A stretch of DNA of 64,000 nucleotides. Origin: Acidobacteriota bacterium (lineage in GTDB: Bacteria > Acidobacteriota > Vicinamibacteria > Vicinamibacterales > 2-12-FULL-66-21). Under the pieces are notes generated by a model, which worked only from the letters and a program-made list of their open reading frames with translations, was not told the DNA's origin and did not search any database. The stretch spans positions 4,397-68,396 of the forward strand of contig JBKPNQ010000138.1 of NCBI GenBank assembly GCA_046732715.1, given 5' to 3'. Shown here piece by piece: positions 7,215 through 58,418 of the stretch; the stretch's first letter is position 1; every line of letters starts with the position of its first letter. The translations under genes were made by a program, and so were the position numbers.

Positions 7215-7277
7215 GGATTGCGGACTTCGGATTGCGGATTGTCGATTGAGACTGCGAATTGGCGATTGCCGATTCTC
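7215..7277. repeat. Heptamer tandem array, 9 units (GGATTGC type), filling the whole intergenic region
   Basis: ggattgc ggacttc ggattgc ggattgt cgattga gactgcg aattggc gattgcc gattctc. Runs from the DUF4159 start to the GNAT stop. Confidence 0.85.
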
Positions 7278-7860
7278 AGGCTCTCGCAAAAACGTCCTCG
7301 CGCGTGATTTCCCAGATCATGCTGTCGCGCGCCGCGCCAGAGGGCTTGATCGTCGCATTCGGGATCGTGCGCAGGTGGCGGTAGCCGAGCCGCTTTGGAA
7401 CTCCGGCGCTCGCGACGTTCTCCGGATCGCATCGGATTTGAACCCGCTCGATTCCTGGTTGCTTGAGCGCCAGCCTCGTGAGCGCGTCGGCCGCTTCCGA
7501 CATGAAGCCCTGGCCTGTCGCCGATGCCTGCAACCAGTAGCCCATTTCGAGGCAGTCCTCGCCGATGCGTGGATGAAGCCCGGCGCCGCCAAGCAGCGCA
7601 TCGGCGGACCGAGACCAGATGGCGAAGAGCCACTGCTCACCGGCATCGAACTGATTGGCAAACAGATCGAGGCGCTCCTCGAGAGCGCCGATCGGGGAAG
7701 GCTCGGACATCGCCCAGGGCAACCAGGCCTGAAGGTGCTCGAGGTTCCCATCGAGCACCACTTTCAATGCCAGCGCATCAGCTCGTCGCCACGAACGCAG
7801 CAGCAGACGCGGTGTCGGCCATTCAGATGGCAGCGAGAGCTTCAATAGCCTATGTCGCAA
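7276..7860 (-). CDS. GNAT family N-acetyltransferase (RimJ/RimL-like)
   Basis: 194 aa. LLLRSWRRADALAL...GYWLQASATGQGFMSEA...RLGY. TTG start; the exact start is uncertain. Confidence 0.8.
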   Translation of the reverse strand: MRHRLLKLSLPSEWPTPRLLLRSWRRADALALKVVLDGNLEHLQAWLPWAMSEPSPIGALEERLDLFANQFDAGEQWLFAIWSRSADALLGGAGLHPRIGEDCLEMGYWLQASATGQGFMSEAADALTRLALKQPGIERVQIRCDPENVASAGVPKRLGYRHLRTIPNATIKPSGAARDSMIWEITREDVFARA

Positions 7861-7888
7861 TTCGCGGTTCGCGGCTCGCCAGTCGCGT
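7854..7888. repeat. Heptamer tandem array, 5 units (TTCGCGG type)
   Basis: gtcgcaa ttcgcgg ttcgcgg ctcgcca gtcgcgt. Lies between the 7906 stop and the 7860 start. Confidence 0.75.
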
Positions 7889-7905
7889 GATTAGGACGCG
7901 TCCAC

Positions 7906-8896: not shown

Positions 8897-9489
8897 CGGA
8901 ACGCTCTCCTCGAATCGGTCTTGCCAACCTCATGCCGTTGCACGCGCTTGGCCAGGAAGATGTCGGGCTTGCCTGGACCGTTTGCGTCAGGCATGACGCC
9001 AACAATCGTAAATCCGAGTCGCTGATAGAACTCGTAGGGGTGGCCGCCCAGATTGCGTACGCCTCGAATCGCGCCCGCCACGTCGGCATACAGGTCCACT
9101 TCGCTCAGCGTCGTCTCGTGATTCTCGTCGTCGCTGCCCACCCACAGGGTGACGCCACCCAGTTGCCGCACTGTGCCCTCGAGATCGAGTACGAGCGCGC
9201 GGCCAACGCCGCGTCGCCGCGACGGGGCCGCGACCACGAGCGGATGAATCTCCCAGACGTTGCCGTCGTACTCGGGCATGGCACCGATCCATCCGAGGAC
9301 GGCATCTGAGTCATCAACGGCGACGCGGCTGATTCTTCCGTCCGTCAGCGAGTCGAGCGCCTCCTGTCGAGCCGATGCGAGGTCTGGCCAGTCCTTCGCG
9401 CGGCCCAGGAAGCCGTCATAAAGCAACCTCGCGGCCTGATCGACGAGGTCGATGCGATCCGCCGTCAGGTCGAGGATGCGCAGACTCAC
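8893..9489 (-). CDS. GNAT family N-acetyltransferase (possibly AAC(6')-like)
   Basis: HPLVVAAPSRRRGVGRALV...GHPYEFYQRLGFTIVGVMPDANGPGKPDIFLAKRV. GTG 9489 avoids overlap. The track start 9534 (GTG) would overlap the upstream gene by 32 nt. Confidence 0.7.
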   Translation of the reverse strand: MSLRILDLTADRIDLVDQAARLLYDGFLGRAKDWPDLASARQEALDSLTDGRISRVAVDDSDAVLGWIGAMPEYDGNVWEIHPLVVAAPSRRRGVGRALVLDLEGTVRQLGGVTLWVGSDDENHETTLSEVDLYADVAGAIRGVRNLGGHPYEFYQRLGFTIVGVMPDANGPGKPDIFLAKRVQRHEVGKTDSRRAFR

Positions 9490-24652: not shown

Positions 24653-24687
24653 GATCAATCAGCAATCAGCAATCAACATCAGCATTG
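24653..24687. repeat. Heptamer tandem array, about 5 units (AGCAATC type)
   Basis: gatcaatc agcaatc agcaatc aacatc agcattg, directly after the pcm stop. Confidence 0.75.
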
Positions 24688-25410: not shown

Positions 25411-25457
25411 GATCACTCCGAGGGGCTTCGCGGCTCGGACTCCGCGACACGCCTCTA
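25411..25457 (-). repeat. 5'-leader hairpin element, copy P
   Basis: mRNA sense: GGCGTGTCGCGGAGTCCGAGCCGCGAAGCCCCTCGGAGTGATC-ATG(25410). Confidence 0.8.
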
Positions 25458-30907: not shown

Positions 30908-33765
30908 TCCTCGACCTTGGCCGCGAGCGCCGCCTGCGCGGCAGCCAGCCGTGCGACCGGCACCCGGTACGGCGAGCAGCTGACGTAGTCGAGCCCGACC
31001 TTCTCGAAGAAGTGAATCGACGACGGATCGCCGCCGTGCTCGCCGCAGATCCCGAGCTTCAAATTGGCGCGGGCGCCGCGCCCCTTCTTCACGGCAATCT
31101 CGACCAGCTGACCGACGCCGGTCGCGTCGATCGATGCGAACGGGTTCTTCTTCACGATCTCGAGCTCCTGATAGTGCGGCAGGAACGAGCCCGAGTCGTC
31201 GCGCGACATGCCGAGGCCGGTCTGCGTTAGGTCGTTCGTGCCGAAGCTGAAGAACTCGGCCGTCTGGGCGATCTCGTCAGCGGTCAAAGCGCCGCGCGGG
31301 ATCTCGATCATGGTGCCGACCATGTAGGACAGCTTCACCTTCTTCTCGGCCTCGACTTCACGCGCCGCCTGGTGGACGACGTCAATCTGCAGGTCGAATT
31401 CCTTCTTGAATCCCACCAGCGGGATCATGATCTCCGGCCGAACCTTGATGCCTTCCTTCTGGACGATCGCCGCGGCTTCGAACACAGCACGCGCCTGCAT
31501 CGCCGAGATCTCGGGGTAGCCGATGCCGAGACGGCATCCGCGGAAGCCGAGCATCGGGTTGAACTCGTGCAATTGCTCGACGCGCTGATGGATCCGCGCC
31601 GCCGGCACGCCGATCTTCTTGCCCAGCTCTTCCTGCTGCTCCTTGGTATGTGGCAGGAACTCGTGAAGCGGCGGATCGAGGAAACGAATCGTCGCCGGGT
31701 AGCCCTTCAGCGCGCGGAAGATGCCCGCGAAGTCCTCGCGCTGATACGGCAGCAGCTTGGCAAGCGCAGCCTTCCGCTCCTCGACCGTCTCGGCGAGGAT
31801 CATCTCGCGCATCGCGTCGATGCGGTCCCCCTCGAAGAACATGTGTTCCGTGCGCGTCAGGCCGATGCCGACCGCGCCGAACGCGACCGCATTGGCCGCC
31901 TGCTCTGGCGTGTCGGCATTCGTCCGGACGTTCATCCGCGTCGCGTCCGAACACCACTTCATCAACTGCTGGAAGCTCTTGAACTTCTCGGTCTTCTTGG
32001 CGGCTTCATTGCCGTCGATCAGGCCGGCGACAATTTCCGATGGCGCCGTCTTGACCTGGCCGGCGAAGACCTTGCCAACGGTGCCATCGATCGACATCCA
32101 GTCGCCTTCCTTGAACGTCTGCTTGTCGACCTTCACCGTGCGCGCCTGGTAGTCGACTTCGACGGCCGCCGCACCGCAGACGCACACCTTGCCCATCTGC
32201 CGCGCAACCAGTGCGGCGTGTGACGAGACGCCCCCGCGTGCGGTCAGGATGCCTTCGGCCGCAATCATGCCGCGCAGATCTTCGGGAGACGTTTCGATGC
32301 GGACCAGGAGCACCTTCTCGCCCTTTTCCGCCGCGGTGACTGCGCGCTCGGCATTCAAGTAGATCTTGCCGGACGCGGCGCCCGGGCCCGCTGGGAGCCC
32401 TGTCGCGATCGCTTTCGCCTTGGCGACTTCGGCCGCGTCGAACACCGGCGCCAGCAACTGCTCGAGCTGGTCGGCCGGATTGCGCTGGATTGCCACCTTC
32501 CAGTCGATCAACTTTTCCTTCTGCATGTCGATCGAGATCTTCAGCGCCGCCATCGCCGTTCGCTTGCCGTTGCGCGTCTGCAGCATGTAGACGACGCCGT
32601 CCTCGATGGTGAACTCGAAGTCCTGCATGTCCTTGAAATGCTTTTCGAGCGTCTGGCGGATGCGCTCGAGCTCGGCGTACGCCTTCGGCATTTCCTTCTT
32701 CAGCTGCGCTACCGGCTCCGGCGTCCGGACGCCGGCGACGACATCCTCACCCTGCGCGTTGATCAGGAACTCGCCGTAGAACTCCTTCACGCCGTTCGCC
32801 GGGTTGCGCGTGAACGCGACGCCCGATCCCGATTCGTCGCCGGTGTTCCCGTAAACCATCGCCTGCACGTTGACGGCGGTGCCCCACTCCGATGGGATGT
32901 TGTACTTGCGCCGATACACGATCGCGCGGTCGTTCATCCACGAGCCGAACACCGCACCCACGGCACCCAGCAGCTGGTCCCACGGCGAATCCGGAAACTG
33001 TTTGCCGGCGCGCTCCTTGACGAGCTTCTTGAAGCGCACAACCAGCTCTTTCAGGTCGTCCACGGTCAGCTTCGTGTCCTCGATGTCCTGGTGGTGACGC
33101 TCGTGCTTGAGGCCCTCGATCACCACCTCGAATGGCTCGTGGTCCTCTCCCGCAGCCTTCTGCACGCCGAGGACGACGTCGCCGTACATCTGGACGAAGC
33201 GGCGATAGCAGTCCCACGCGAATCGCGGGTTGCTGGTCTTTGCCGCCAGCGCTTCGACGGTTTGATCGTTCAGGCCGAGATTGAGGATGGTGTCCATCAT
33301 GCCCGGCATCGAGTCGCGTGCACCCGAGCGCACGGAGACGAGCAACGGGTTCTTCAAGTCGCCGAACTTCTTGCCGGTCTGCTGTTCAATCGAAGCGACG
33401 CCGGCCTCCATCTGCCCGCGCAGTGCCGGCGGGTACGACCGCTTGTTGTCATAGTAGTAGGTGCAAACCTCGGTCGTAATCGTGAACCCTGGCGGGACGG
33501 GCAACCCGATGCGGCACATCTCGGCGAGGTTCGCGCCCTTGCCGCCAAGCAACGGCTTCATCGATCCGTTGCCGTCGGTCTTGCGGCCGAACAAGTACAC
33601 GTACTTCGCGTTCTTCGCAGTTCGCGATTCGTCCCTCGACTTCGCTCGGGACGGCCCTGAGCTTGTCGAAGCGTCGCGGTTCGCGGTTCGCGCTTTACTT
33701 ACAGTCCGCAGCGCCGCGGCCCTGTTCGTCTTCGGTGTCGATTTGCGTCCGAGCTTCTTCGCCAT
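30904..33765 (-). CDS. ppdK: Pyruvate, phosphate dikinase
   Basis: [28 protein letters not shown]...[16 protein letters not shown]...[10 protein letters not shown]. The first 55 codons are basic and encoded by repeat elements. Alternative GTG start at 33600. Confidence 0.9.
33604..33693. repeat. Composite element: TTCGCGN heptamers, REP-like palindrome (copy b), TTCGCGG heptamers
   Basis: cttcgcg..ttcgcag ttcgcga ttcgtcc | ccctcgacttcgctcgggacggccctgagcttgtcgaagc | gtcgcgg ttcgcgg ttcgcgc. Lies inside the 5' end of the ppdK ORF. Confidence 0.75.
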
Positions 33766-35973: not shown

Positions 35974-35978
35974 CAGTC

Positions 35979-36104
35979 CAATTGGTGAATTGGTGAATTT
36001 GGTGAGCTGGTGAAGTGGGCTTCGCATGCGCTACCGCGCGTGCTGTTAGAGCGCGGCGGTAGCCGCGTAATGCAGAATTCACCAATTCACCAATTCACCA
36101 ACTG
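35979..36104. repeat. Intercistronic inverted octamer arrays (GGTGAATT)n around a structured core
   Basis: Left arm: ccaattggtgaattggtgaatttggtgagctggtgaag. Right arm: gaattcaccaattcaccaattcaccaactg. The core carries a second GC-rich imperfect palindrome. Confidence 0.85.
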
Positions 36105-36110
36105 CCCGCC

Positions 36111-37732: not shown

Positions 37733-37814
37733 GCAAAATCAGCAATCGTCAGATCGTCCATCGACAATCCGCAATCAAAAATCCCCAATCCGCAGTCCCA
37801 AATCCGCAATCATT
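37733..37814. repeat. Heptamer tandem array, about 11 units (CGCAATC type), filling the mgtE-recO intergenic region
   Basis: gcaaaatc agcaatc gtcagatc gtccatc gacaatc cgcaatc aaaaatc cccaatc cgcagtc ccaaatc cgcaatc att. Confidence 0.85.
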
Positions 37815-39293: not shown

Positions 39294-39322
39294 ACTCGCG
39301 ATTCGCGGTTCGCCATTCGCGA
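39294..39322. repeat. Heptamer tandem array, 4 units (TTCGCGN type)
   Basis: actcgcg attcgcg gttcgcc attcgcg, lying between two hairpins. Confidence 0.7.
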
Positions 39323-40986: not shown

Positions 40987-41600
40987 GCGAGACACCTCGT
41001 TCCCCTCTTTGTGACCGGCTGACCGCGTGTCAATCGCGCACGCATCTTGGCTTCGAGCAACGCGCGCCCCCGATGCAACCTCGATCGAACCGTGCCCACC
41101 GCGCACTCGAGCACCGACGCCGCTTCGTCATAACTCAGATCCTGCAGGTCGCACAGGACCACGACCTCTCGATACCGGAGCGGCAGGCTCAGCACGGCTT
41201 GGCGAAGCGCCTCGATCTGCTCTGCGTTCGACAGATCGCCAAGCGGATCCGGACGAACGACTGCGGCCGGCTCTGTCCGATCGGGGTGATCAGACAGTTG
41301 AACCGTGCGCCGATCGCGATCGCGCTTTCGGCGTGCATGGTTGCGCGCGATCCCGCAGAGCCAAGCCGTGACCGTCGCGCGCCCGGACTCGAATCGGGCT
41401 GCATCACGCATGACCGCCAGAAACACGTCCTGCGTCACATCCTCGGCCGCCGTGGCCGACCCCGTCATCAGCAAGGCGATGCGATAGACGTCGCCGTGGC
41501 GCCGGCGAAACAGCGCGGCAAACGCGAGGGCGTCACCGCCGGCCACTCGCGCGACCAGCTCGTCGTCCGACGCGCCGTCCGGCAGAGGCTCGTTGCTCAT
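40983..41600 (-). CDS. ECF (sigma-70 family) RNA polymerase sigma factor
   Basis: 205 aa. Region 2 is DVTQDVFLAV, and the region 4 HTH is LSYDEAASVLECAVGTVRSRLHRGR. Confidence 0.9.
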   Translation of the reverse strand: MSNEPLPDGASDDELVARVAGGDALAFAALFRRRHGDVYRIALLMTGSATAAEDVTQDVFLAVMRDAARFESGRATVTAWLCGIARNHARRKRDRDRRTVQLSDHPDRTEPAAVVRPDPLGDLSNAEQIEALRQAVLSLPLRYREVVVLCDLQDLSYDEAASVLECAVGTVRSRLHRGRALLEAKMRARLTRGQPVTKRGTRCLA

Positions 41601-41672
41601 GCGAAGGCGTTGCCGCTCACATTGTGTATTCAGCTGGAGGGGGCAGAAAGTTCCAGGAAGGTGGATGGTCCG

Positions 41673-44072: not shown

Positions 44073-44077
44073 GGCGC

Positions 44078-45079: not shown

Positions 45080-45089
45080 GATCGGCGCG

Positions 45090-46358: not shown

Positions 46359-46879
46359 GAACGCTCGATCAATCCTGCCTGGAGGCCGCCGCGGCGGCGC
46401 CACCGTCGTTCGACGCGGGCCATCCGTCCGCGGTCATCGGCGGAGTCGTGATCGTAACCGAGCAGGTGCAGAAGTCCATGGAGTGCGAGGACCCGCAGCT
46501 CAGCCTGATACGAATGCCCGGCCTCGCGGCCCTGCCGGCGCGCGACACCGGTGGCGATGACGATGTCTCCGAGGAACTTCGCGCCCCCGAATCCGCTCGT
46601 CGACAGGCTCGCCGAAGCCCGGGATCCGTCCGCCGGAAACGACAGGACGTCCGTTGCGGAGCTCTTGTGCCGGTAGCGTGAATTGAGTTTGTGAATATGC
46701 GCATCGGTGACGAGCGCGACGGCCACGTCGCCGCGAACGCGCGCCGGGCAGACGTCCGACAACCATCGCGCCAGCCCGCCGTCCCGCAGCGCGCGGCCGC
46801 ACCCGTCCGACACGGTCACGTGGAGACCGCGAGTCGCGCTGCCGCCGGATCGCCGCAGGCGTCTACTGTCGTGATCCAC
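46355..46879 (-). CDS. ybeY: rRNA maturation RNase YbeY
   Basis: TDVLSFP...[14 protein letters not shown] 46879 overlaps phoH by 17 nt. Alternative GTG at 46819. Confidence 0.9.
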
Positions 46880-47813
46880 CGTAGGCTTCGTAGGCCTTGA
46901 CGATCTGCTGCACGAGCGGGTGACGCACGACGTCCTTTTCGTCGAAGTGAATGAACGAGATGCCCTCGACGTCGCCGACGACCTTCATCGCTTCAACCAG
47001 CCCGGACTGGCGAGCCGTCGGCAGATCGATTTGCGTCACGTCCCCGGTAATGACCGCCTTCGATCCGAACCCCAATCGCGTCAGGAACATCTTCATTTGC
47101 TCGGACGTCGTGTTCTGCGCTTCGTCCAGAATCACGAATGCATCGTTCAATGTGCGGCCGCGCATGAAGGCGATCGGCGCCACCTCGATGGTGCCGCGCT
47201 CGAGCATCCGATCCGCGCGCTCGATTTCCATCATGTCGTAGAGCGCGTCATAAAGCGGCCGCAGGTACGGATTGACCTTCTCCTGTAAATCGCCGGGGAG
47301 GAATCCCAGCTTCTCTCCCGCCTCGACGGCAGGCCTGGCCAGGATGATCCGGCTGACCCGCTTGGACAGCAGGAACGAGACCGCCTGCGCCATCGCCAGG
47401 TAGGTCTTCCCCGTCCCGGCCGGTCCGATCCCAAACACGATGTCATGCCGCTCGATGGCATCCAGGTAGCGTCGCTGGTTGACGCTCTTGGGCATCACCT
47501 GACGCTTGCCGGTCGGGCGCGCCGAGCCACGGAGGAAGTAATCCGCGAGCTCGACGTGCTCGTCCTGGGCGACGAGCTGTGACGCCGTTTTTACGTCGCC
47601 CTTGCCGAGCCGGTAGCCGCCGCGCACGAGCGCCGATAACTGCTCCAGTACATTCTCAGTACGGCTGACGTCGGCCGGTTCCCCCTCGACAATCAGTTCG
47701 TGCCCATTCGTGCGAATCCGCACGTTGAACAGCGATTCCAGATGTTTGAGGTTCTCGTCGAGGGGACCGTACAGTGACTCGGCCCCTTCGTCCGGGACCG
47801 AAATCTTGCGCAT
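46863..47813 (-). CDS. phoH: PhoH family ATPase
   Basis: 316 aa. [13 protein letters not shown] (Walker A)...FVILDEAQN...[11 protein letters not shown]. Confidence 0.9.
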
Positions 47814-47876
47814 GACTGTGGCAGGAGGGATAGGGAATCTCCTTCAGAACACGCAGGCTCTCTGCGATGGTATCAC

Positions 47877-47918
47877 GAGCCTTGAGCCTTGAGCCGTGAG
47901 CCCTGAGCCCTGAGCCCT
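47877..47918. repeat. Heptamer tandem array, 6 units (GAGCCYT), abutting the aspS stop
   Basis: gagcctt gagcctt gagccgt gagccct gagccct gagccct. Confidence 0.85.
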
Positions 47919-49681
47919 CATTTCAGCCTCAACTCTTTCAATTGCTTGTCGCTCACCGTGGACGGCGCCCCGGCCATCAAATCGACGGCCTGGGCCGTCT
48001 TTGGAAACGCAATGACATCGCGGATCGACGGCTCGGCGCACAGGATCGCGGCGATGCGATCCAGGCCAAGGGCGATGCCGCCATGCGGCGGCGTGCCGTA
48101 TTCCAGCGCATCGACGAAGAAGCCGAATCGCAATCGCGCTTCCTCGTCCGAGATGCCAAGCAGCTTGAAGATCAGCCGTTGCAGCTCCTGATCGTGAATT
48201 CTGATGCTGCCGCCGCCGATCTCGCTGCCGTTCAGCACGAGATCGTAGGCCCGCGCGCGGGCGCGGCCCTGATCGCTCTCGAGCAGGTGGCGATCGCTTT
48301 CGAGCGGCGCCGTGAACGGATGATGCATGAACTCGTACCGTTTCTCGTCCTCGAGCCACTCGAACATCGGAAAGTCGACAACCCACAGAAAGGAGAACGT
48401 GTTGGGATCGAGCAGACCTTGCTTTTTGGCAATCGCCAGTCGCAACTGACCGAGCATCCTCGAGGTGGGCTCGTGAGCGCCGGCAGCCATGACGGCCAGA
48501 TCCGCCGGCCCGGCACCGGACAGTTCGATCGCGCGCCGGACCGCCTGCTCACCCGCCGCCTTCAGCACCGGACTCTGAACCCCCGCGTCGGCATGGCGCG
48601 CCCACACCAGCCCGCTGGCGCCCAGCTGCTTCGCTTGCTCGACCACCTCGTCCAGTTCGCGGCGCGAGTACTTTGCCGCGCCAGGGACGGCGAACCCGCG
48701 CACCTCGCCGCCGGCCGCGATGGCGTCGCGGAAGACCGAGAACTCGGATCCCTCGAACGCCGCCGAGAGATTCGCGATCGCCATTCCGCAGCGCAAATCC
48801 GGCTTGTCCGATCCGTACCTGGCAATCGCATCGGCGTACCGGAGCCGCAGGAAGGGCCTTGGCGCGTCGTGTCCAATCAGCGCCATCAGCCGCTCCATCA
48901 GCGGCTCGAGCATCGCGAAGACGAGCTCCTCGGTCGCAAACGAGATCTCGAGGTCGACCTGCGTGAACTCCGGTTGGCGATCGGCGCGCAGGTCTTCGTC
49001 GCGGAAGCACTTGACGATCTGAAAGTAGCGATCGAGGCCGGCGATCATCAGGATCTGCTTGAAGAGCTGCGGCGACTGCGGCAGCGCATAGAACTCGCCC
49101 GGATGCACCCGGCTCGGCACCAGGTAGTCGCGGGCACCTTCGGGTGTGGACTTCGTCAGCATCGGGGTTTCGACTTCGAGAAATCCCTGCTCATCGAAGT
49201 ACTTTCGAATCGCCATCGTCGCCCGGTGGCGCATGATCATGTTGCGCTGCATCCGTGGGCGCCGCAGATCGATGTACCGGTACTTCAGCCTCGCTTCCTC
49301 CGTCACTTCGACGTCGTCACTGATCATGAACGGCGGAGTTTTCGCCTCATTGAGCAGACGAATCTCGCGCGCCGCGACTTCAATCTCGCCGGTCGCGATC
49401 TTGCTGTTCACGGTCTCCGCGGCCCGATGCTCGACGTGTCCATTCACGGCGATTACGAACTCCAGCCGCAGCCGCTTAGCCTCGGCGACGAGCTGCTCGT
49501 GATCACGGACGATGACCTGCGTCATGCCGTGACGATCGCGGATGTCGATGAAGACCAGCGAGCCGAGGTCCCTGACGCGATGCACCCAGCCGAGCAAGAT
49601 CGCGTCCTTGCCAACATCTTCAGCGCGAAGGGCGCCACACGTGTGAGTTCGGGCGAGCGTTCCTAACGGTTCAATTTCCAT
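47918..49681 (-). CDS. aspS: Aspartate--tRNA ligase
   Basis: 587 aa. FIDIRDRHG...FRDEDLRADRQPEFTQ...GGGSIRIH...PPHGGIALGLDR. Confidence 0.95.
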   Translation of the reverse strand: MEIEPLGTLARTHTCGALRAEDVGKDAILLGWVHRVRDLGSLVFIDIRDRHGMTQVIVRDHEQLVAEAKRLRLEFVIAVNGHVEHRAAETVNSKIATGEIEVAAREIRLLNEAKTPPFMISDDVEVTEEARLKYRYIDLRRPRMQRNMIMRHRATMAIRKYFDEQGFLEVETPMLTKSTPEGARDYLVPSRVHPGEFYALPQSPQLFKQILMIAGLDRYFQIVKCFRDEDLRADRQPEFTQVDLEISFATEELVFAMLEPLMERLMALIGHDAPRPFLRLRYADAIARYGSDKPDLRCGMAIANLSAAFEGSEFSVFRDAIAAGGEVRGFAVPGAAKYSRRELDEVVEQAKQLGASGLVWARHADAGVQSPVLKAAGEQAVRRAIELSGAGPADLAVMAAGAHEPTSRMLGQLRLAIAKKQGLLDPNTFSFLWVVDFPMFEWLEDEKRYEFMHHPFTAPLESDRHLLESDQGRARARAYDLVLNGSEIGGGSIRIHDQELQRLIFKLLGISDEEARLRFGFFVDALEYGTPPHGGIALGLDRIAAILCAEPSIRDVIAFPKTAQAVDLMAGAPSTVSDKQLKELRLK

Positions 49682-49777
49682 AATCCGAACACGTCTCTTC
49701 TATCGGGGCTTTCTTGAATGCTGATCAACATCAACGACTTTCACCGTCCCACTGCCAATGCATCGCTCGAGACACAC

Positions 49778-49844
49778 AGGAGAAAGGAGAAAGGAGACAC
49801 TTGGTATTCTGTGAAACGGCAACATTTCTCCTTTCTCCCTTCCT
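49778..49844. repeat. Inverted heptamer arms, (AGGAGAA)3 and (TTCTCCT)3, around a 27-nt core
   Basis: aggagaaaggagaaaggaga - cacttggtattctgtgaaacggcaaca - tttctcctttctcccttcct. Lies in the hisS-aspS intergenic region. Confidence 0.85.
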
Positions 49845-49906
49845 GTTATCTCTTGATCTAATCGCAGCGTGACTCTGGCTGTCGTCGATTGAGGTCTGAC
49901 TCAATT

Positions 49907-51208
49907 TTACGTTGACGTTCTCACCAACGAGGCCACCGCAGCTCGTGGCACGGACTGCTGTTCTCCCGTGTCGAGGTTCTTGATCGTCACTTCTCCGCGC
50001 GCGATTTCGTCGCCGCCCAGAATCGCGGCCAAACAAATGGCCTTGCTGGACGCGTACTTCATCTGCTTGCCGAGCTTGTCCGGCTCGGGGTAGACCTCGA
50101 CCCGAATCCCCGCCGCCCGCAGTTCACGCGCGAGCTTCAGCACCTCGGGGGTCGTCGGCGCATCAAAAACCGTGAGCAGGATGTCCGCCGACGACTGCGC
50201 GACTTTCGGCGGGAACATCTTCCGCTCGGACATGACCACCAGGATGCGCTCGAGGCCCAGCGAAAAGCCGCACGCTGGCACGTTCTCGCCGAGAAACATC
50301 CCGATGAGTCCGTCGTACCGTCCACCGCCACCGAGGCTGCCGGCTAAATCAGGGACCGCGACTTCCATGATGGCGCCGGTGTAATACGACAGGCCCCGCG
50401 CCAGGAACGGCGCGAACTTGACGTGACCTGCAGCGGCGGTTGATTCACACAGGGTCATGATCTCACCCAGGTTCGCCCCAGCAGCCGCCCCTTCCCCGTT
50501 CGGGAAGGATGTGATTACTCCAGAACCAACGTTGTCGAGCAGGGCGGTTGCGACCTCACGAGACACACCTCGCGAAACCATCTCCTCTGCGACACCATCG
50601 ACGCCGATTTTGTCGAGTTTGTCGAGAGCGATCAGCGCGGCCGTGTGCAACGCCGGTTCGACTCCAGCCCGATTCAGCGTCGCCGTCAGCAACTGCCGGT
50701 GGTTCAACTGAATCGTAAAGTCGTTGAATCCGAGCCGCTGGAGCACCTCACTCACTGCCGCCAGCATCTCGGTTTCGACAAGCGGCGATCGCGAACCGAT
50801 TGCATCGACGTCGCACTGATAGAACTCCCGAAAGCGTCCCCGCGCGGGCCGGTCGGCCCGCCACACCGGCTGGATCTGGTAGCGCTTGAAGTATTTCGGC
50901 AGCTTGCCGCGATACTCGGCAACCACGCGCGCGAGCGGGACGGTCAGATCGTACCGAAGCGCGAGATCGGTCTCGCCCGACGACTCGTGCTCACCGCGGC
51001 GGAGCACTTTGAAAATCAGTTTGTTCCCCTCTTCGCCGTACTTGCCAGTGAGCGTCTCGATGTTCTCGAGTGCCGGCGTTTCGAGCGGCTCAAAGCCGTA
51101 GCGCTGATAGACCGCCGATACAATCCCGATCACGTATTCCCGCCGGCGGACGTCCTCCGGCAGGAAATCGCGCATGCCACGAGCCGGCCGGGTCTGCTGC
51201 GACGCCAT
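49907..51208 (-). CDS. hisS: Histidine--tRNA ligase
   Basis: 433 aa. RGMRDFLPED...FRYERPQ-like WRADRPARGRFREFYQCD...GGGRYDGL. Confidence 0.95.
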   Translation of the reverse strand: MASQQTRPARGMRDFLPEDVRRREYVIGIVSAVYQRYGFEPLETPALENIETLTGKYGEEGNKLIFKVLRRGEHESSGETDLALRYDLTVPLARVVAEYRGKLPKYFKRYQIQPVWRADRPARGRFREFYQCDVDAIGSRSPLVETEMLAAVSEVLQRLGFNDFTIQLNHRQLLTATLNRAGVEPALHTAALIALDKLDKIGVDGVAEEMVSRGVSREVATALLDNVGSGVITSFPNGEGAAAGANLGEIMTLCESTAAAGHVKFAPFLARGLSYYTGAIMEVAVPDLAGSLGGGGRYDGLIGMFLGENVPACGFSLGLERILVVMSERKMFPPKVAQSSADILLTVFDAPTTPEVLKLARELRAAGIRVEVYPEPDKLGKQMKYASSKAICLAAILGGDEIARGEVTIKNLDTGEQQSVPRAAVASLVRTST

Positions 51209-51738
51209 CAGCGGGCAGATCCCGCGCCCGCGGCGTCCATGTAGTCGAGCCGGTATTCGACATAGCGCTCAGCGTAGACACGGATCGAGCGAACGTCGTC
51301 GTCGGTCAGCACACGGCGCACTGTGCCGGGACTTCCCATGATCAACGAACGCGGCGGCACGCGCGTGCCTTCGGTCAGCAACGTCCCGGCCGCGACAATC
51401 GAGTCCTCGCCGACGACCACGCCGTTCAGAATGACCGCTCCCATGCCGATGAGAATCCGGTCTCGCAAGGTGCACCCGTGGACGACGGCTCCGTGGCCGA
51501 TCGTCACGTCGTTGCCAATCGTCGTCGGATGGGTGCCGTTCATCACGTGCACCGTCGTGTTGTCCTGCACGTTCGAACGCGCCCCGATCCGAATCCAATG
51601 CACGTCCCCACGCACGACCGCATTCATCCAGATGCTGCTGGCCTCGCCAATCTCGACATCGCCGATGACTTGTGCGGTGGTGTCCACGTAGGCGGTCGGA
51701 TGCACACGTGGAAGTGTGCCTTTGTAGGGGCGGAGCAT
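51208..51738 (-). CDS. Gamma carbonic anhydrase family (hexapeptide repeat) protein
   Basis: 176 aa. IWMNAVVRGDV..IRIGARSNVQDN..VH..IGNDVTIGHGAVVHGC. One-nt overlap with hisS (TGATG). Confidence 0.9.
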   Translation of the reverse strand: MLRPYKGTLPRVHPTAYVDTTAQVIGDVEIGEASSIWMNAVVRGDVHWIRIGARSNVQDNTTVHVMNGTHPTTIGNDVTIGHGAVVHGCTLRDRILIGMGAVILNGVVVGEDSIVAAGTLLTEGTRVPPRSLIMGSPGTVRRVLTDDDVRSIRVYAERYVEYRLDYMDAAGAGSAR

Positions 51739-51754
51739 CTAATAATGATACAGG

Positions 51755-51892
51755 ACTCGCGGTTCGCAATTCGCGGTTCGCGATTCGCGTTACCGGATGC
51801 GTAGTGCCCGATCCAGGGCCCCACTGTTCCCACTCAGTGATCACCAAACAGCGAATTGCGATCTGCGAATTGCGAATTGCGAATTGCGATTA
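51755..51892. repeat. Inverted heptamer arms, (TTCGCNN)5 and (GCGAATT)6, around a core of about 60 nt
   Basis: Left arm: actcgcg gttcgca attcgcg gttcgcg attcgcg. Right arm: gcgaatt gcgatct gcgaatt gcgaatt gcgaatt gcgatta. At least 12 bp pair perfectly. Confidence 0.85.
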
Positions 51893-53530
51893 CTTCTTTA
51901 CCGTCGGATAGGTAATCCCCAACTGTTCCAGATAGGTCTTGTACTTCGTGGGATCGTAGTAGTACTTCTTCATCTCGGCGCGGTACTTGTCCATCGTTCC
52001 TTTGTTCAATTCGATCGCGGGCTTGTCGTCAGGACGGATCAGCGGTTCGTACTTGGTTTCCTTCGTTTGCACGTTCCGGAAGTAATCCCAGGCGGCCTGC
52101 ACAAGCGCCGGCTTTGTGAGCAGATCGATCATCGTCATGGCCTGTACCTTCGCACCGGCGGTCACCCCTTTGTGCGCGATCGGCGTGGCCATGGAGATCG
52201 CGTTGGCCCAGTTGTGGCCGGGCAGCCCCGGGATGTTGGAGGGATACCGCAGCGTGATGGTCGGTACGCTCCAGGAAATATCGCCGATGTCGTCGGAGCC
52301 GCCGCCCGTATTGGTCTGCGCCGGCCACGCCAGCGTGGCGATAGGCTTGGTCGTCAGCCCGGTCTCGCGGGATCCAAGTTCCTTCTGCAGCGCTTTGGCG
52401 AGCGTCTGATCGTCGTCGCTCCATTGCGGCAGGCCAACGCGATTGATGTTGGCGAACGCCGCTTCGGCGACCGCCTTGTTGAAATGCTGCGGCCACGCTG
52501 ATCCCAGCACGCGCGTCGGCAGCAGCTCGGTGCCGGTCATGAGCGCGGCGCCCTTCGCGATCGCGTCGCCGGTCGCCCAGAGATCCTTGATCTTCTGGTA
52601 GGTGGTCTGGCGGAAGTAGTACCAGACCGACGCGGTTTGCGGAACGACGTTCGGCTGATCGCCACCGTTGGTGATGACGTAGTGCGATCGCTGCTCGAGC
52701 GGCAGGTGCTCGCGCCGGAAGTTCCAGCCGATATCCATCAATTCCACGGCGTCGAGCGCGCTGCGCCCCCGCCAGGGAGCACCGGCGGCGTGCGCGCTCT
52801 CTCCCTTGAAGGAATAGAGCACCGAGACGAGACCGGTCATGTTTCCCCGATCGCCCCACGACACGCCCATGTCGTCGCCGACGTGGACGAACATGGCGAC
52901 GTCAACGTCCTTGAACAATCCGGCGCGAATGAAATACGCCTTCGTCCCGACCAGCTCCTCGGCCGTGCCGGACCAGATTCGGATGGTACCCGGGAGCTTT
53001 TCGCGCTGCATGATCTTCTTCACGGCGATGGCGGCGGTGATGTTCAGCGGCTCGCCGGAGTTATGTCCTTCGCCGTGACCCGGAGCGCCCTCGATGATCG
53101 GATCGTGGTACGCGACGCCCGGTTTCTGGGAGGCCTGCGGAATCCCGTCGATGTCGGAGCCCAGCGCGAGCACCGGCTTGCCCGATCCCCAGGTCGCCAT
53201 GAAGGCGGTCGGAATCCCGGCGATGCCTTCCTCTACCGTGAATCCGTTCTTCTCCAGGACGTCGATCAGGTATCGGTTCGTCTCGAACTCTTGAAAGCCA
53301 AGCTCGCCGAAGCTGAAGACCGAGTCGACCATCTGCTGTGAAAACACTTTCATCGAATCGATATCCGCAGCCGCCTCGCTCTTCAGGCGGGCGATCCGGG
53401 GCTCGTCGGCGGGCGGAGTGGGCGGGGTTCCCCGCGGCTGGTCACCGCCTGCCTGGGCCAGAACGGTTGCGGCCGCGACCACGGCCATGCCAATCGCCAT
53501 CAGTCTCGAGCGTGTCTGTCTGTCGGTCAC
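51890..53530 (-). CDS. M20 family amidohydrolase/peptidase (AbgB-like), secreted
   Basis: 546 aa. FGELGFQEFET...ALGSDIDGIPQ...GHGEGHNSG. GTG 53530, or alternatively ATG 53500. Confidence 0.85.
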   Translation of the reverse strand: MTDRQTRSRLMAIGMAVVAAATVLAQAGGDQPRGTPPTPPADEPRIARLKSEAAADIDSMKVFSQQMVDSVFSFGELGFQEFETNRYLIDVLEKNGFTVEEGIAGIPTAFMATWGSGKPVLALGSDIDGIPQASQKPGVAYHDPIIEGAPGHGEGHNSGEPLNITAAIAVKKIMQREKLPGTIRIWSGTAEELVGTKAYFIRAGLFKDVDVAMFVHVGDDMGVSWGDRGNMTGLVSVLYSFKGESAHAAGAPWRGRSALDAVELMDIGWNFRREHLPLEQRSHYVITNGGDQPNVVPQTASVWYYFRQTTYQKIKDLWATGDAIAKGAALMTGTELLPTRVLGSAWPQHFNKAVAEAAFANINRVGLPQWSDDDQTLAKALQKELGSRETGLTTKPIATLAWPAQTNTGGGSDDIGDISWSVPTITLRYPSNIPGLPGHNWANAISMATPIAHKGVTAGAKVQAMTMIDLLTKPALVQAAWDYFRNVQTKETKYEPLIRPDDKPAIELNKGTMDKYRAEMKKYYYDPTKYKTYLEQLGITYPTVKK

Positions 53531-54622: not shown

Positions 54623-54670
54623 GGTCCAAGTCAGCAACCTTCACAGTCGAGCTGCACGCACCGACGGTGA

Positions 54671-54876
54671 CGTCGAAGATCCGAAGAATCGAAGATCCGA
54701 AGGAAGAGAGTCACGCCGCGGCTGCAGAACGCCGGCCCCGAGGGCCGGCGTGCGAGTGAGGCAACGCGCGATGCGCGGTCCAGCAGCCCAAATCCTCTAG
54801 AGGCGGGCCCTTGGGGCGAACAACGAGAGCCATCTCCTTCGGATCTTCGGATCTTCGGATCTTCGGATCTTCGACG
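54671..54876. repeat. Inverted octamer arms of about 38 bp, (GAAGATCC)n and (CTTCGGAT)n, flanking a 125-nt core
   Basis: Left arm: cgtcgaagatccgaagaatcgaagatccgaaggaag. Right arm: ctccttcggatcttcggatcttcggatcttcggatcttcgacg. Confidence 0.9.
54729..54751 (+). terminator. Perfect 10-bp GC hairpin (ACGCCGGCCC-cga-GGGCCGGCGT), no T-run
   Basis: About 105 nt downstream of the moaA stop, inside the core of the octamer element. Terminator function is uncertain. Confidence 0.3.
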
Positions 54877-54917
54877 CTGCCGATGTAGCGTGGCAGTGAA
54901 CCAAGCTTCACTCTTAG

Positions 54918-55499: not shown

Positions 55500-56638
55500 T
55501 GTCTCCGGCTGGAGATACTCACATGTCACGCTGTCTGACCGACGAAGAGCTCCAGGCGATTGCGGATCGTGAGGCGCGCCCGGAGATGGCGGCGCACGTT
55601 GAAGAATGCCGTCGGTGTGCCGACCGGCTCGCCGTCCGGACCCGACTGATCGGCCGGGCGATCGACGCGGCCGGCGTGGGCGAAATCTCGCCTGACGCTC
55701 GCCGGACAATTCGCGCGCGGCTCGATCGGGCCGCCGCCGATGGCGCGACCACCCTGCGCCCGGTGCGTCCCGCCGGCAGGTGGAGGTGGGCGCTCCCGCT
55801 GGCCGCGGCGGCGGCGATGCTGCTCGTCGTCTACGTGCTTCCCGGAATCGATCGGCGGACGACGGTGTCGGCCGCCGAGATTCTGGGCCGTTCGCGATCC
55901 GTGCTTGCCGCACCTGTGTCTGGCGTCGAGGTTCTGACCTACGACCTCGAGGTCGCCGGAGTGCTCGCGGATCTCATCCCTGAAGAGCAGGCGGGGCGAT
56001 TCACCGTGCAGGAACTCGTCGACCACGATCACAACGGCCGGTATCGGATCGTCAAGCTGACCAGCGGCGGCCAGGTCGTTGGCGGCGCCGCAGACGATCC
56101 CCTGCGCGGTACACGAGTGCGATACATGCGGGTGAATGGCCGGGGGTATCTGTTGAGATTCCAGGGAGCCGAACCGACCGCGTTCTCGATTCCTGCGTTG
56201 AAGCGCACCGCACTTCAGACGTTCATCGGCTTCATGCAGGCCAGCAGCACGCAGACACTGCGTGAAGTTCAGCGCGGCGCTGACGCCTGCTATCAAATCG
56301 ACATTCCCGGCGGTGCGATGGCAGGCGGCACCTTTGTCGCCCTCGACAGCGCGCGCGCGATCGTGACCATCGCAGATTCGCGGCTCGTCGAGTTTTCGGC
56401 CGCCGGCCGCCTCGCCGATCGACCGTTCACGATTGAATTCTCGCTGTTGACGCAGGACTTTCGTCCCAGCGAGTCGACGAAGGACAGCGATTTCGACATC
56501 GCACCAGAGCCGGGAGACGTGATCCTGCAAGGCAATGCGTCCCAGAATCCCGTCTGGGACGTCGTCACGCGCGCCCTCGGCGCAATCCCGGCGAACGCTG
56601 CCGCCCACTCAGAAGGCGTGTCGCGCCAGGGGCAGTGA
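55499..56638 (+). CDS. Anti-sigma factor (zf-HC2-like) with a large extracytoplasmic domain
   Basis: TGATG overlap with the sigma gene. HVEECRRCADRL motif. TM helix WALPLAAAAAMLLVVYVL. The roughly 260-aa outer domain has no recognised family. Confidence 0.65.
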   Translation: MSPAGDTHMSRCLTDEELQAIADREARPEMAAHVEECRRCADRLAVRTRLIGRAIDAAGVGEISPDARRTIRARLDRAAADGATTLRPVRPAGRWRWALPLAAAAAMLLVVYVLPGIDRRTTVSAAEILGRSRSVLAAPVSGVEVLTYDLEVAGVLADLIPEEQAGRFTVQELVDHDHNGRYRIVKLTSGGQVVGGAADDPLRGTRVRYMRVNGRGYLLRFQGAEPTAFSIPALKRTALQTFIGFMQASSTQTLREVQRGADACYQIDIPGGAMAGGTFVALDSARAIVTIADSRLVEFSAAGRLADRPFTIEFSLLTQDFRPSESTKDSDFDIAPEPGDVILQGNASQNPVWDVVTRALGAIPANAAAHSEGVSRQGQ

Positions 56639-57552
56639 CAGTGCCGGACGCGATTCGCACCGAGTCGCTCACCAAATACTACGGGCCGGTGGTGGCCCTC
56701 GAGTCTCTGGATCTCACCGTCGCGACTGGTGAGATTTACGGTTTCCTCGGACCGAATGGGGCCGGCAAGACAACGACGATCCGAATCCTGCTCGATCTGG
56801 TACGGGCCACGAGCGGACGCGCCCGTGTCGACGGCCTTGATTGTCGGGCCGCGAGCGTGGACGTGCGACGGCGGATCGGATACTTGCCGGCCGAGATGCC
56901 TCTCTATCGCGAAATGACCGGGGTCGCGTATCTGCAGTTTCTGGCCGCGCTTGAATCGCGGCGAGTGGACGAATCGTATCGCCGGAAGCTGTTTGCCCGA
57001 TTCGATGTCAGCGACATCGACCTCCGGCGGCGGCTCGACCACCTGTCGCACGGCATGAAGCGCAAGTTCGGCATCATCCAGGCGCTCATGGGACAGCCGC
57101 CATTGTTGATCCTCGATGAACCGACATCCGGCCTCGACCCGTTGATGATTGAAGCGTTCGCTGAGACCGTTCATGAGTTGAAGACGGAAGGGCGCACGAC
57201 GATCTTCCTGTCGTCGCACGTTCTGTCGGAAGTGGAACGCCTCTGCGACCGCGTCGGCATCATCCGGCGCGGAAAGCTCGTGAGACAAACGTCGATCGCG
57301 GATCTGCGCCGTGACACACCGCGGCGGCTGCGCGTATTTTTTGACGGTGCCGCCCCACGTCCGCCCTCGTCACTCGCTGCTGCCGTGCGCCGCAGCGACA
57401 CCCGGCACTGGGAGCTGGAGTGGCCCGGCCCGCTCGGGGGCGTACTCGACGCACTGCAAGGGCTCGCGGTTTCGGACATCGAGATCGAGCCGTTCAAGCT
57501 CGAGGACTACGTGCTCAAGATCTATTCCGGCACGCCAGGAGCGGGCGCGTGA
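56635..57552 (+). CDS. ABC transporter ATP-binding protein
   Basis: GTGA overlap with the upstream gene. GPNGAGKTTT (Walker A), LSHGMKRK (signature), LLILDEPTSGLD (Walker B). Confidence 0.9.
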   Translation: MTVPDAIRTESLTKYYGPVVALESLDLTVATGEIYGFLGPNGAGKTTTIRILLDLVRATSGRARVDGLDCRAASVDVRRRIGYLPAEMPLYREMTGVAYLQFLAALESRRVDESYRRKLFARFDVSDIDLRRRLDHLSHGMKRKFGIIQALMGQPPLLILDEPTSGLDPLMIEAFAETVHELKTEGRTTIFLSSHVLSEVERLCDRVGIIRRGKLVRQTSIADLRRDTPRRLRVFFDGAAPRPPSSLAAAVRRSDTRHWELEWPGPLGGVLDALQGLAVSDIEIEPFKLEDYVLKIYSGTPGAGA

Positions 57553-58352
57553 TGTTCGTCGCGCTCGTGCGTCGTTCCTTCGCGCGTCATCGTGCCCTGA
57601 TCGGGGCGCTGACTGCGCTGCTCTCGGCTTTTCAGATCCTCGACATTGTCGTCGCCTACAAGCTTCAGCAGAATGCGGCCTACTCGCAATTCGCCGCGAT
57701 GGTACCGGCGTTCATCCAGGAAGCCATGGGCGGAGCGCTGGTCGGGACGTTTCTTGGCGCGATTGCAGTGGGCTTCGTCCACCCACTCGTCATGCTGTCG
57801 CTGTCCTGTGCGGCAATCTATCTCGCCAGCGAACCCGCGGGTGAGGTCGAGGAAGGGCTGGTGGACCTCGTCGTCGCCCGACCGGTGCCGAGGCACGTGA
57901 TCGTTTCACGGTCGATGGTGGTGTACGTGACCGGGACGTTCGTGGTCGTGGCTGCGATGTTCGCAACGAGCCGCGCGACCGTGCATTGGCTGATGCCGGG
58001 GCAGGCGCACGTGGTCGCGGCGTCGCGCCTTGCCTGGCTGGCTTTCAACCTGCTCGCCATCGTCTGGTCGCTCGGCGCTGCCGCTCTGGCCTTCGCGTCG
58101 CACGTCCGCGAACGCGCGCGCGCGGCCGGGACTATCGCGCTGCTCGCAGTGTTTCTGTATCTGCTGCAGTTCGGTGCCGCCGCCTGGGAGCCGTTACGAC
58201 CGTTCGCGCGGGTGTCGCCGTTCCACTACTACGCAACGATGCAAACGCTGATGGGCCAGGTGACGCCAGCGACACACATTGCGGGACTGCTGACTGCAGC
58301 GGTGATATTGCTTGGGGTTGCGTATGTTCTGTACGAACGCCGTGACCTGTAA
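57552..58352 (+). CDS. ABC-2 type transporter permease
   Basis: ATG 57552 overlaps the ATPase stop by 1 nt. 266 aa, about 6 TM helices. Confidence 0.7.
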   Translation: MFVALVRRSFARHRALIGALTALLSAFQILDIVVAYKLQQNAAYSQFAAMVPAFIQEAMGGALVGTFLGAIAVGFVHPLVMLSLSCAAIYLASEPAGEVEEGLVDLVVARPVPRHVIVSRSMVVYVTGTFVVVAAMFATSRATVHWLMPGQAHVVAASRLAWLAFNLLAIVWSLGAAALAFASHVRERARAAGTIALLAVFLYLLQFGAAAWEPLRPFARVSPFHYYATMQTLMGQVTPATHIAGLLTAAVILLGVAYVLYERRDL

Positions 58353-58418
58353 ATCAACAATCAACCCCTCGATGTTGCTCGGGGCTGACCCTGAGCGAAG
58401 TCGAAGGGTCGGCAATCA
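58352..58418. repeat. Composite element: (AATCAAC)2, REP-like palindrome (copy c), CAATCA
   Basis: aatcaac aatcaac CCCCTCGATGTTGCTCGGGGCTGACCCTGAGCGAAGTCGAAGGG tcgg caatca. Lies between convergent genes. Confidence 0.75.

Follow-up and report, generated by a model that had tools for sequence, protein, structure and literature searches.

Heptanucleotides are the commonest long simple sequence repeats in repeat-rich bacterial genomes, and slippage has been proposed as their cause, with the footprint of the polymerase as an idea for the 7-nt period (Mrazek, Guo and Shah 2007, as summarized in PMC4679880 and PMC4692102). We have analysed arrays of this kind, made of 7- and 8-nt units in tandem, in the spacers of a 64,000-nt stretch of DNA from a soil Acidobacteriota bacterium of the Vicinamibacterales (contig JBKPNQ010000138.1 of assembly GCA_046732715.1, positions 4,397 to 68,396; "the window" from here on) and in those of related contigs. 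The initial annotation of the window had presented them as an arrangement unlike any described repeat family. This does not hold, since the long simple sequence repeats (LSSRs) of Mrazek, the heptamers of cyanobacteria and the GGGAATC repeats of Xanthomonas had already been described, and we conclude that the arrays belong to this known class (long simple sequence repeats, SSRs, or heptamer repeats of the cyanobacterial type), newly documented in the Acidobacteriota. A literature search on heptamer repeats in Acidobacteria found no paper.

The tandem heptamers of cyanobacteria are reportedly known as short tandemly repeated repetitive (STRR) sequences, from work said to be that of Mazel et al. 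in 1990. They share with the arrays described here the presence of several units per genome, tandem amplification and a location in spacers, including those within operons; the phylum and the units are different, and few inverted pairs are reported for Nostoc (PMC4692102). Three tandemly repeated heptanucleotides are cited for Calothrix PCC 7601 in the same paper (PMC4692102). The likeness extends to the LSSRs as a whole, which the summaries describe as tandem units of 5-11 nt, most commonly 7, mostly intergenic, longer than expected by chance, found in free-living bacteria with large genomes and of unknown function. However, these are a statistical class, and the summaries in PMC4679880 and PMC4692102 name no acidobacterium among the repeat-rich genomes and make no mention of stop-codon anchoring, of hairpins with mirrored arms or of unit turnover at orthologous sites, all of which are seen here. 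The GGGAATC repeats of Xanthomonas lie between co-directional open reading frames (ORFs) and rarely between divergent ones (Rehm et al. 2015, PMC4692102), within 50 bp of a stop codon or overlapping it; each genome contains 70-75 inverted "convergent" pairs, and their position is common to the species while length and sequence vary widely (PMC4692102). The bias in spacer class, the nearness to stop codons, the inverted pairs and the conserved position of a variable sequence are all found again in our arrays, and so is the handedness of the "convergent" pairs, with a G-rich 5' arm on both strands. Both the Xanthomonas genomes and those of Nostoc (GGGGAYT) have one dominant G-rich unit with G-quadruplex potential, whereas here there are dozens of units, most of them without G-tracts, accompanied by octamers and by variable cores of 4 to ca. 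480 nt.

The TAACTGA direct repeats of marine Beggiatoaceae, for which binding by cold-shock or OB-fold proteins was suggested (MacGregor 2015, PMC4679880), are also intergenic heptamers in direct repeat, present in hundreds of spacers and of unknown function. They consist of a single unit, placed mostly directly upstream of start codons, with one inverted set in 170 (PMC4679880), while our arrays are anchored at stop codons and have variable units. The paired sites of Geobacter metallireducens are, like ours, intergenic and made of 3-5 tandem 7-9-nt units, many of them in opposite-strand pairs at variable distance, but they form genome-wide families with one consensus and were read as regulator-binding sites (PMC2700814), and here the sequences are largely locus-specific. 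Repetitive extragenic palindromic (REP) sequences, bacterial interspersed mosaic elements (BIMEs) and the miniature transposable elements with inverted repeats known as MITEs resemble our elements in being intergenic, palindromic, often located between co-transcribed genes and able to form stable stem-loops (PMC3184786, PMC10969869), and one of our elements exists in two copies (in L041; labels L001-L157 denote the related loci and contigs used for comparison). However, dispersed copies and a conserved consensus characterize the families of REPs and MITEs, the MITEs having target-site duplications as well, whereas our arms are tandem heptamers, most of our elements are single-copy in the 1.9 Mb compared, and no duplication was seen. 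No REP or BIME consensus is common to the arrays, and only a separate 40-nt palindrome behaves like a REP. CRISPR arrays, with repeats of 24-47 nt and unique spacers of about the same length, were excluded by the contiguous 7-8-nt units found here. A MITE assignment is not supported either, in that inverted arms are present but no flanking direct repeats were seen, be it at the L041 copies or at the hairpins of the window. The Chunjie MITE of Geobacter, suspected of having tandem-repeat arms, was dropped because reviews give it 21-bp inverted repeats and 9-bp target duplications.

It was confirmed that the arrays of the window are real and highly non-random. Tandem Repeats Finder (TRF) gave 14 rows with period 7 and six with period 8 in the 64 kb; the units stand head to tail, with period-7 rows at nine loci (2.7-8.7 copies) and period-8 rows at two (Table 1). 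With a score of at least 40 there were eight arrays of period 7 and four of period 8, each figure against 0.02 expected from 50 dinucleotide-preserving shuffles of the window, i.e., 12 against 0.04 for both periods together. All of them fall within the 9.0% of the window that is intergenic. Along the same lines, the autocorrelation of intergenic DNA peaks at lags of 7, 14 and 21 nt and that of coding DNA shows only the lag-3 series, and a 50-kb control from E. coli K-12 gave no TRF row of period 7 or 8. Perfect runs of at least three copies in the pooled spacers numbered 18 for period 7 and none in the shuffles; perfect two-copy duplications also had their biggest excess at 7 nt, in a count contaminated by pieces of longer imperfect arrays. 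Within arrays, TRF found super-periods of 14, 21 and 27 nt that match better than the 7-nt period. The array at 35980 seems to be coding because the glyS ORF, as called mechanically, is over-extended by 17 codons (35977-36027) and translates the octamers (MRSPLHQLTKFTNSPIGL...); the gene really begins with the ATG at 35976 (MDRELLIEIGVEELP), and the Pfam match follows five residues later.

Most of what the initial annotation had read by eye in the window survives this analysis. From its list of at least 12 array loci, 11 have TRF rows of period 7 or 8, and the remaining one (58352-58418) consists of a palindrome and a few units beside it; a weaker case placed at 28095-28137 was lost, with no TRF row and a fold z score of -0.3 (z scores compare the minimum free energy, MFE, of a spacer with that of 100 shuffles). 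The units do differ among loci, as had been stated, and at least six of them are unrelated, most lacking runs of three or more Gs, but they are not strictly locus-specific, since two related families together cover 8-9 loci. CAATCCG-like units are found at 7215, 24656 and 37765 and flanking 58366, and TCGCGRT-like units at 7861, 33600/33674, 39296 and 51757/51851. The four loci described as having inverted arms fold as hairpins whose arms pair over their whole length (z -7.9, -6.3, -4.2 and -3.9), and the spacers with direct arrays at 7213, 7849, 24603, 33601 and 47814 fold no better than shuffles (z about 0). Two REP-like palindromes between same-orientation arrays had also been reported; both are real and mutually homologous (33633-33672 and 58366-58407), although the flanks of the second do not amount to an array.

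Period 7 is the dominant one among intergenic repeats across the lineage. The census covered 108 related contigs with G+C above 0.58 (pooled 1.14 Mb, 8.7% intergenic), sampled as regions around two marker genes, and counted non-redundant arrays with a TRF score of at least 40; a smaller census took in 58 loci. There were 98 arrays of period 7, 78 of them intergenic. For period 8 the figures were 21 and 19, and outside these two periods the highest intergenic count was 16, for period 9 (40 arrays); 10 out of 14 arrays of period 10, 13 out of 26 of period 14 and three out of 57 of period 12 were intergenic. Arrays had a density of ca. 100-190 per Mb in the sampled regions, with dozens of unrelated heptamers as units, and those of period 7 were also present in the lower-GC contigs of Blastocatellia/Pyrinomonadaceae. 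Their position is far from random too. Arrays follow directly on stop codons where the neighbouring genes are co-directional or convergent, and they avoid divergent spacers, which contain only promoters: 81 of the 92 array-bearing spacers were co-directional, eight convergent and three divergent, against 460, 52 and 113 in the background, which means that divergent spacers are depleted (Fisher p 7.5e-6). Within co-directional spacers the median distance from the upstream stop codon to the array was 7 nt (10 nt or less in 52 of 81) and that from the end of the array to the next start codon 33 nt (Wilcoxon p 1e-4 between both distances), with genes called by our own codon-bias caller, in which stop codons are exact and start codons approximate.

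A single array was found in 66 of these spacers and two arrays in 26. Where there are two, one nearly always repeats the other collinearly in inverted orientation, and together they make a long hairpin: 24 of the 26 pairs were mutually inverted (23, plus L002 on inspection), one was direct and one unrelated, and inverted pairs make up about a quarter of the array-bearing spacers. The hairpins are long and nearly perfect, with 27 uninterrupted pairs in L132, ca. 77 pairs in L154 and ca. 100 pairs in the longest near-perfect helices of the relatives, and they usually extend from 0-7 nt past the stop codon to 9-35 nt ahead of the next start codon, around cores that vary from 4 to ca. 480 nt. The arms are mirror copies unit by unit, given that the natural register beats every whole-unit rotation in 10 of the 15 testable hairpins; in L002 even an 8-mer (unit 5) and a 6-mer (unit 8) recur at matching places in the two arms. 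There is a handedness in addition. The 5' arm has more G than C in 23 of 25 hairpins (window plus L001-L157), on both strands, and the skew of one arm versus the other goes 21 to 3 (p ca. 3e-4). We had considered a 5' arm that is G-rich relative to transcription and dropped this, as the handedness proved to be independent of the strand: a palindrome reads alike on both strands, so what is seen is a property of the element and not an orientation relative to the genes.

The most telling comparisons come from orthologous spacers, in which the array stays in place across the clade but differs from one relative to another in the sequence of its unit, in copy number and in layout. Downstream of the M20 peptidase gene an array starts within 30 nt of the stop codon in all 10 loci with an M20 identity of at least 83%, and in only 13 of the 68 more distant loci. 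The units following the stop codon in those ten are AATTCGC, TCGCTAG, GCGACTG, GCGGTTG, CGGGATC and AGCCGAG. Going by M20 identity, the window (100%; TAATCGCAATTCGC..., read by eye, comes immediately after the gene) has an AATTCGC/GCGAAYC hairpin, L081 (99%) has TCGCTAG x3.3 in direct orientation only, L082 (93%) a GCGACTG/CGCGAGT hairpin with one mismatch per unit, L083 (87%) GCGGTTG/ACCGCTA with a 14-nt super-period, L002 (87%) GGGATCC followed by CGCGAAT, L001 (87%) AGCCGAG, and L084-L087 (83-85%) GGGATSC. L081 lacks the 5' arm and the core of the hairpin at 51755-51892 despite flanking DNA that is 96.5% identical. L086 and L087, from different samples, are identical over the displayed stretch of 242 nt. 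After moaA, the window, L081 and L082 have 8-mer arms in common, the 3' arm being one unit shorter in L082; L001 and L002 have GATTGCG/CGCAATC arms instead, which begin inside the moaA stop codon and enclose a loop of 4 nt in L002 and an insert of ca. 480 nt in L001. The spacer between hisS and aspS measures 225 nt in the window and 21 nt in L001.

Some other features of these spacers deserve mention. Within the core of the moaA 8-mer hairpin, L082 has an extra, near-perfect nested hairpin (1083-1274, GGCGGTGATCCCCAAACACAAACACCC...GGGTGCTTGTGTTTGGGGATCACCGCC) that the window does not have; it gives the impression of having been inserted into the tip of a hairpin already present, or close to it. 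A conserved GTATCAT immediately follows the variable arrays (51739-51756 in the window; also L001, L002 and L081-L084). It precedes the ATG of the hexapeptide-transferase gene by 6-9 nt and could be the -10 box of a leaderless or near-leaderless transcript. Several genes that follow arrays (glyS, recO, the sigma factor) have no obvious Shine-Dalgarno sequence.

Table 1. Arrays and palindromes of the window, with the genes that flank them and the z score of the fold.
Position	Strand	Element	Units, arms and TRF rows	Context	Fold z
7213..7275	-	Direct heptamer array	ca. 8.7 units; GCAATCC on sense strand, GGATTGC on + strand; TRF 7215-7274, period 7 and period-27 super-period	From GNAT gene (7276-7860) stop codon to ca. 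20 nt upstream of DUF4159 gene	-1.0
7854..7888	-	Short, weak heptamer array, TTCGCGG family	3-5 units; TRF 7861-7879, period 7, 2.7 copies, score 31		-0.1
24653..24687	-	Direct heptamer array	CAATCAG on +, CTGATTG on sense strand; TRF 24656-24684, period 7, 4.3 copies, score 44	1-2 nt past PCMT gene (24688-25416) stop codon	-0.5
33600..33693	-	Same-orientation units flanking 40-nt REP-like palindrome (33633-33672)	TTCGCGR; TRF 33600-33623, 33674-33692	Between glyS stop codon and PPDK start codon	+0.2 (spacer)
35977..36110	-	Octamer hairpin; core 57 nt, a stem-loop in its own right	TRF period 8; arms 35980-36018 (AATTGGTG), 36076-36101 (AATTCACC)	Between glyQ and glyS; helix base 9 nt past glyQ stop codon, ca. 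5 nt before glyS ATG at 35976	-7.9 (MFE -67.7 vs -39.6 for shuffles)
37733..37814	-	Direct heptamer array	GGATTGC-like on sense strand; TRF 37765-37811, period 7, 6.7 copies, period-21 super-period	Fills mgtE stop codon to recO ATG	-4.3, owed to small local stems, not arms
39294..39322	-	Short heptamer array, TCGCGAT family	3.9 units; TRF 39296-39322	Between a stem-loop and an intrinsic terminator (39259-39292, minus strand)	-5.0 (spacer 39189-39379), mainly from the canonical terminator next to the array
47877..47918	-	Direct heptamer array	6 units; GAGCCCT on +, TCAGGGC on sense strand; TRF period 7, 94% matches, score 63	Begins at aspartyl-tRNA synthetase (aspS) stop codon: TGAGGGC TCAGGGC...	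+0.6
49778..49839	-	Short inverted arms, 27-nt loop	AGGAGAA x2.9 at 49778-49797 (TRF); TTTCTCCTTTCTCCC at 49825-49839	Between hisS and aspS	-3.9 (spacer 49682-49906), arms paired
51755..51892	-	Heptamer hairpin, core ca. 60 nt	Arms (sense strand, TRF) AATTCGC at 51851-51889, GCGAAYC at 51757-51789	Begins at M20 peptidase stop codon; ends ca. 18 nt ahead of next gene's ATG	-4.2 (spacer 51739-51889)
54671..54876	+	Octamer hairpin, structured core 134 nt	TRF; arms 54674-54702 (CGAAGATC), 54837-54873 (CTTCGGAT)	Downstream of moaA	-6.3 (spacer 54623-54917, MFE -142.7)
58353..58419	.	REP-like palindrome (58366-58407), no array in itself	No TRF row; two CAATCAA-type units on one side, one on the other	Between convergent genes	-4.6

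The neighbours of the arrays in the window are housekeeping genes (GNAT, DUF4159, PCMT, PPDK, glyS, glyQ, recO, mgtE, phoH, aspS, hisS, M20 peptidase, moaA, an ECF sigma factor and htrA). The window has a G+C content of 62-63%, and its histidyl-tRNA synthetase is 83% identical to homologues from Vicinamibacterales metagenome-assembled genomes; the best 80 genomic relatives all appear to be acidobacterial, chiefly Vicinamibacterales or Pyrinomonadaceae, and these relationships point to the class Vicinamibacteria. Looking up the source contig by exact protein match gave no record. Two of the compared metagenome-assembled genomes (L006 and L011) are titled "uncultured Bifidobacteriaceae bacterium". 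Their histidyl-tRNA synthetases are 62-65% identical to that of the window, their G+C is 66-70% and their gene order is partly that of Vicinamibacterales, so that these taxonomic labels look wrong.

Dispersed copies and inserted sequences were found at a few places. In L041 one hairpin with AGTAGAC/ACTGTCT arms is present twice, at 4218-4343 (+) and 9311-9436 (-), from which it appears that at least some hairpins have spread between loci; for the other elements no second whole copy was found within the at most 20 kb examined per genome. Four copies of the 40-nt REP-like palindrome (CCYTCGA..GCTCRGG..CCYGAGC..TCGAAGG) occur within the 1.9 Mb compared, two of them in the window (33633-33672 and 58366-58407) and the others in L086 (9852-9891) and L096 (2423-2462); heptamer arrays adjoin all four, with units that differ between copies, and the GAGCCCT unit of the 47877 array repeats the inner stem of the palindrome, CCCTGAGC. 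Finally, the heptamer hairpin that follows moaA carries at its tip, in L001 (6206-6508, +) and in L092 (8-202), a gene for a four-helix-bundle protein of the type encoded in 23S rRNA intervening sequences (IVS). The protein matches PF05635 with an E value of 1.1e-7 and 32.5 bits, just below the cut-off of 33.8 bits, and its placement echoes that of such genes in the helix tips of 23S rRNA intervening sequences. A general link between IVS-type genes and heptamer hairpins was dropped, as tblastn matched this one orthologous site only (L001 and L092), an isolated case.

We consider it probable (roughly 60%) that the arrays are intergenic heptanucleotide, less often octanucleotide, SSRs that are driven by slippage, subject to concerted evolution and tolerated after stop codons. 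Both their origin and their turnover would be due to slipped-strand mispairing, strongly biased throughout the lineage towards steps of 7 nt. Slippage by several units at a time is suggested by the super-periods of 14, 21 and 27 nt that outmatch the 7-nt period, and the one-unit difference in copy number between the moaA 8-mer hairpins of the window and L082 was counted as a signature of slippage. Units would be homogenized within each arm, keeping period and position while the sequence drifts, and the arrays would accumulate where DNA is unconstrained, between the stop codon and the expression signals of the next gene. The hairpin versions may derive from an inverted duplication, with a symmetry that might be kept by hairpin-templated (quasi-palindrome) correction, by selection for a compact fold, which would hold the stop codon near the next start codon, or by both. 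Hairpin-templated correction of quasi-palindromes is established in E. coli. Direct arrays are probably close to neutral filler, and for the transcribed hairpins an intercistronic stem-loop role like that of REPs and BIMEs is plausible. Several points weigh against this picture. Slippage is read from patterns, and nothing in the data accounts for the preference for 7 nt. The persistence of arrays throughout the clade, their anchoring at stop codons and the G-rich 5' arm (23 of 25) exceed the order that neutral slippage predicts, and could indicate a function or an enzymatic cause. In L041 one hairpin element is present twice together with its core, so at least some elements spread, which slippage alone does not do. 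The census, moreover, consists of regions around two marker genes and not of whole genomes, and distances to start codons are approximate. A dedicated process spanning the lineage, which would make and maintain the heptamer hairpins as stop-codon-anchored insulators or landing pads, would fit the 7-nt step, the mirror copying between arms and the fixed G-rich-5' handedness on both strands; the landing-pad idea comes from the IVS-type four-helix-bundle genes, REP-like palindromes and nested hairpins that sit inside arrays. We regard such a process as unlikely.

Instead of slippage, selection on RNA might be the leading force, with the arrays, chiefly the hairpins, as selected RNA elements for which slippage only provides the raw material; they could stabilize the upstream message, direct processing by RNase III or another enzyme, terminate transcription without a U-tract or bring stop and start codons close together for translational coupling. 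The strong folds (z scores between -3.9 and -7.9 for the window, and in relatives near-perfect helices that reach ca. 100 pairs), the location immediately after the stop codon, the depletion in divergent spacers, the span of the hairpins from 0-7 nt past the stop codon to 9-35 nt before the start codon, one of them inside glyQ-glyS, and the complementarity of arms kept although units differ between orthologous sites all speak for it, and so does the finding of only one canonical terminator in 20 kb of same-strand genes. This terminator (39292-39259, minus strand), the one convincing case in a scan of 33000-52900, lies beside an array and not within it. However, ca. 70% of the array-bearing spacers hold a single direct array, and five of the six purely direct-array spacers of the window fold no better than shuffles. 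Hairpins were as often more stable as sense RNA as they were as antisense RNA (9 vs 10), with no asymmetry in G-U pairs, that is, there is no RNA-strand signature, and this equal stability points to a process that is symmetric at the DNA level. The hairpin arms of the window and of the relatives are not followed by the T-runs (U-tracts in RNA) of an intrinsic terminator, and Rfam gave no match over the whole 64-kb window, tRNAs included, at the gathering score or at E up to 1. The elements are also dispensable, since L081 retains no more than a short direct array although its flanking DNA is 96.5% identical, and the hisS-aspS spacer is reduced to 21 nt in L001. Selected RNA elements are a possible but rather doubtful account of the arrays. 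Mobile DNA could be behind them in another way, as footprints of insertion and excision with 7-8 bp target duplications or as MITE-like hairpins with heptamer terminal inverted repeats. The two L041 copies, which lie 5 kb from each other in opposite orientation and have their arms in common, with 78% identity between the cores, would be explained by it; so would the recurrence of a few unit families at several loci of the window, the foreign DNA inside arrays (the IVS-type gene at the L001 hairpin tip, the nested hairpin in the L082 core) and the heptamer arrays adjoining every copy of the REP-like palindrome. Target duplications are direct repeats, though, and 24 of the 26 paired arrays are inverted; no direct repeats were seen to flank the L041 copies or the hairpins of the window, the other hairpin cores are single-copy in the 1.9 Mb compared, there is no transposase gene among ca. 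20 checked genes flanking window arrays, and units at orthologous sites shift gradually through related variants, as fits evolution in place better than insertion. We find a mobile origin distinctly unlikely, and the target-duplication footprints floated in the initial annotation are not supported, given the inverted pairs and the fact that no flanking duplications were seen at the inspected elements. Its other suggestion, arrays that bind protein, has the unit diversity against it. A protein with a footprint of 7 nt per monomer, be it a cold-shock or OB-fold protein on single-stranded RNA or DNA or a nucleoid-associated one on the duplex, would suit a period fixed at 7 across loci and two acidobacterial classes, the probably transcribed DNA downstream of genes in which the arrays are found, and the 21-nt super-periods of some arrays, three heptamers being 21 bp or two helical turns. 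But dozens of unrelated units, differing even at one orthologous site, exclude a sequence-specific binder, a non-specific one would have no need of repetition, single arrays favour neither strand with respect to transcription (G>C 31 vs 26; A>T 31 vs 24) and octamers occur in the same architecture, which makes binding platforms very unlikely. Short-read assemblers can collapse or expand short tandem repeats, and exact copy numbers in metagenome contigs are uncertain, yet like arrays at like places in independent assemblies from many projects, and the identity of L086 and L087 over 242 nt in separate samples, leave practically no room for an assembly or sequencing artefact or for strain-private noise. 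Returning to slippage, the proposal of the initial annotation that slippage drives arm growth in combination with structure is the one best supported, by the super-periods, the copy-number difference, the turnover of units and the collinear mirror arms; selection for RNA structure, as the other half of that proposal, has the strong folds at four loci in its favour and the equal stability of sense and antisense against it.

The arrays have practical consequences. Spacers that contain them will mislead ORF callers, as happened with glyS, and arrays abutting start codons are likely to cause similar errors of annotation; short-read assemblers may have trouble with these spacers, and predictors of operons and terminators are likely to misread them. 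Intergenic heptamer repeats were already on record for cyanobacteria, Xanthomonas, Burkholderia, Geobacter and Beggiatoa; they are extended here, at high density, to two classes of Acidobacteriota. The present arrays differ from the known repeats in that they belong to another phylum, have many units side by side, include octamers and enclose variable cores. Any explanation will have to accommodate the anchoring at stop codons, the persistence of sites through replacement of the units, the mirror pairs, the G-first handedness and the absence of an RNA-strand signature. These constraints may be useful to work on why the period is 7, and if a dedicated process were indeed responsible for the hairpins, the 7-nt preference of bacterial repeats would get a concrete enzymatic answer.

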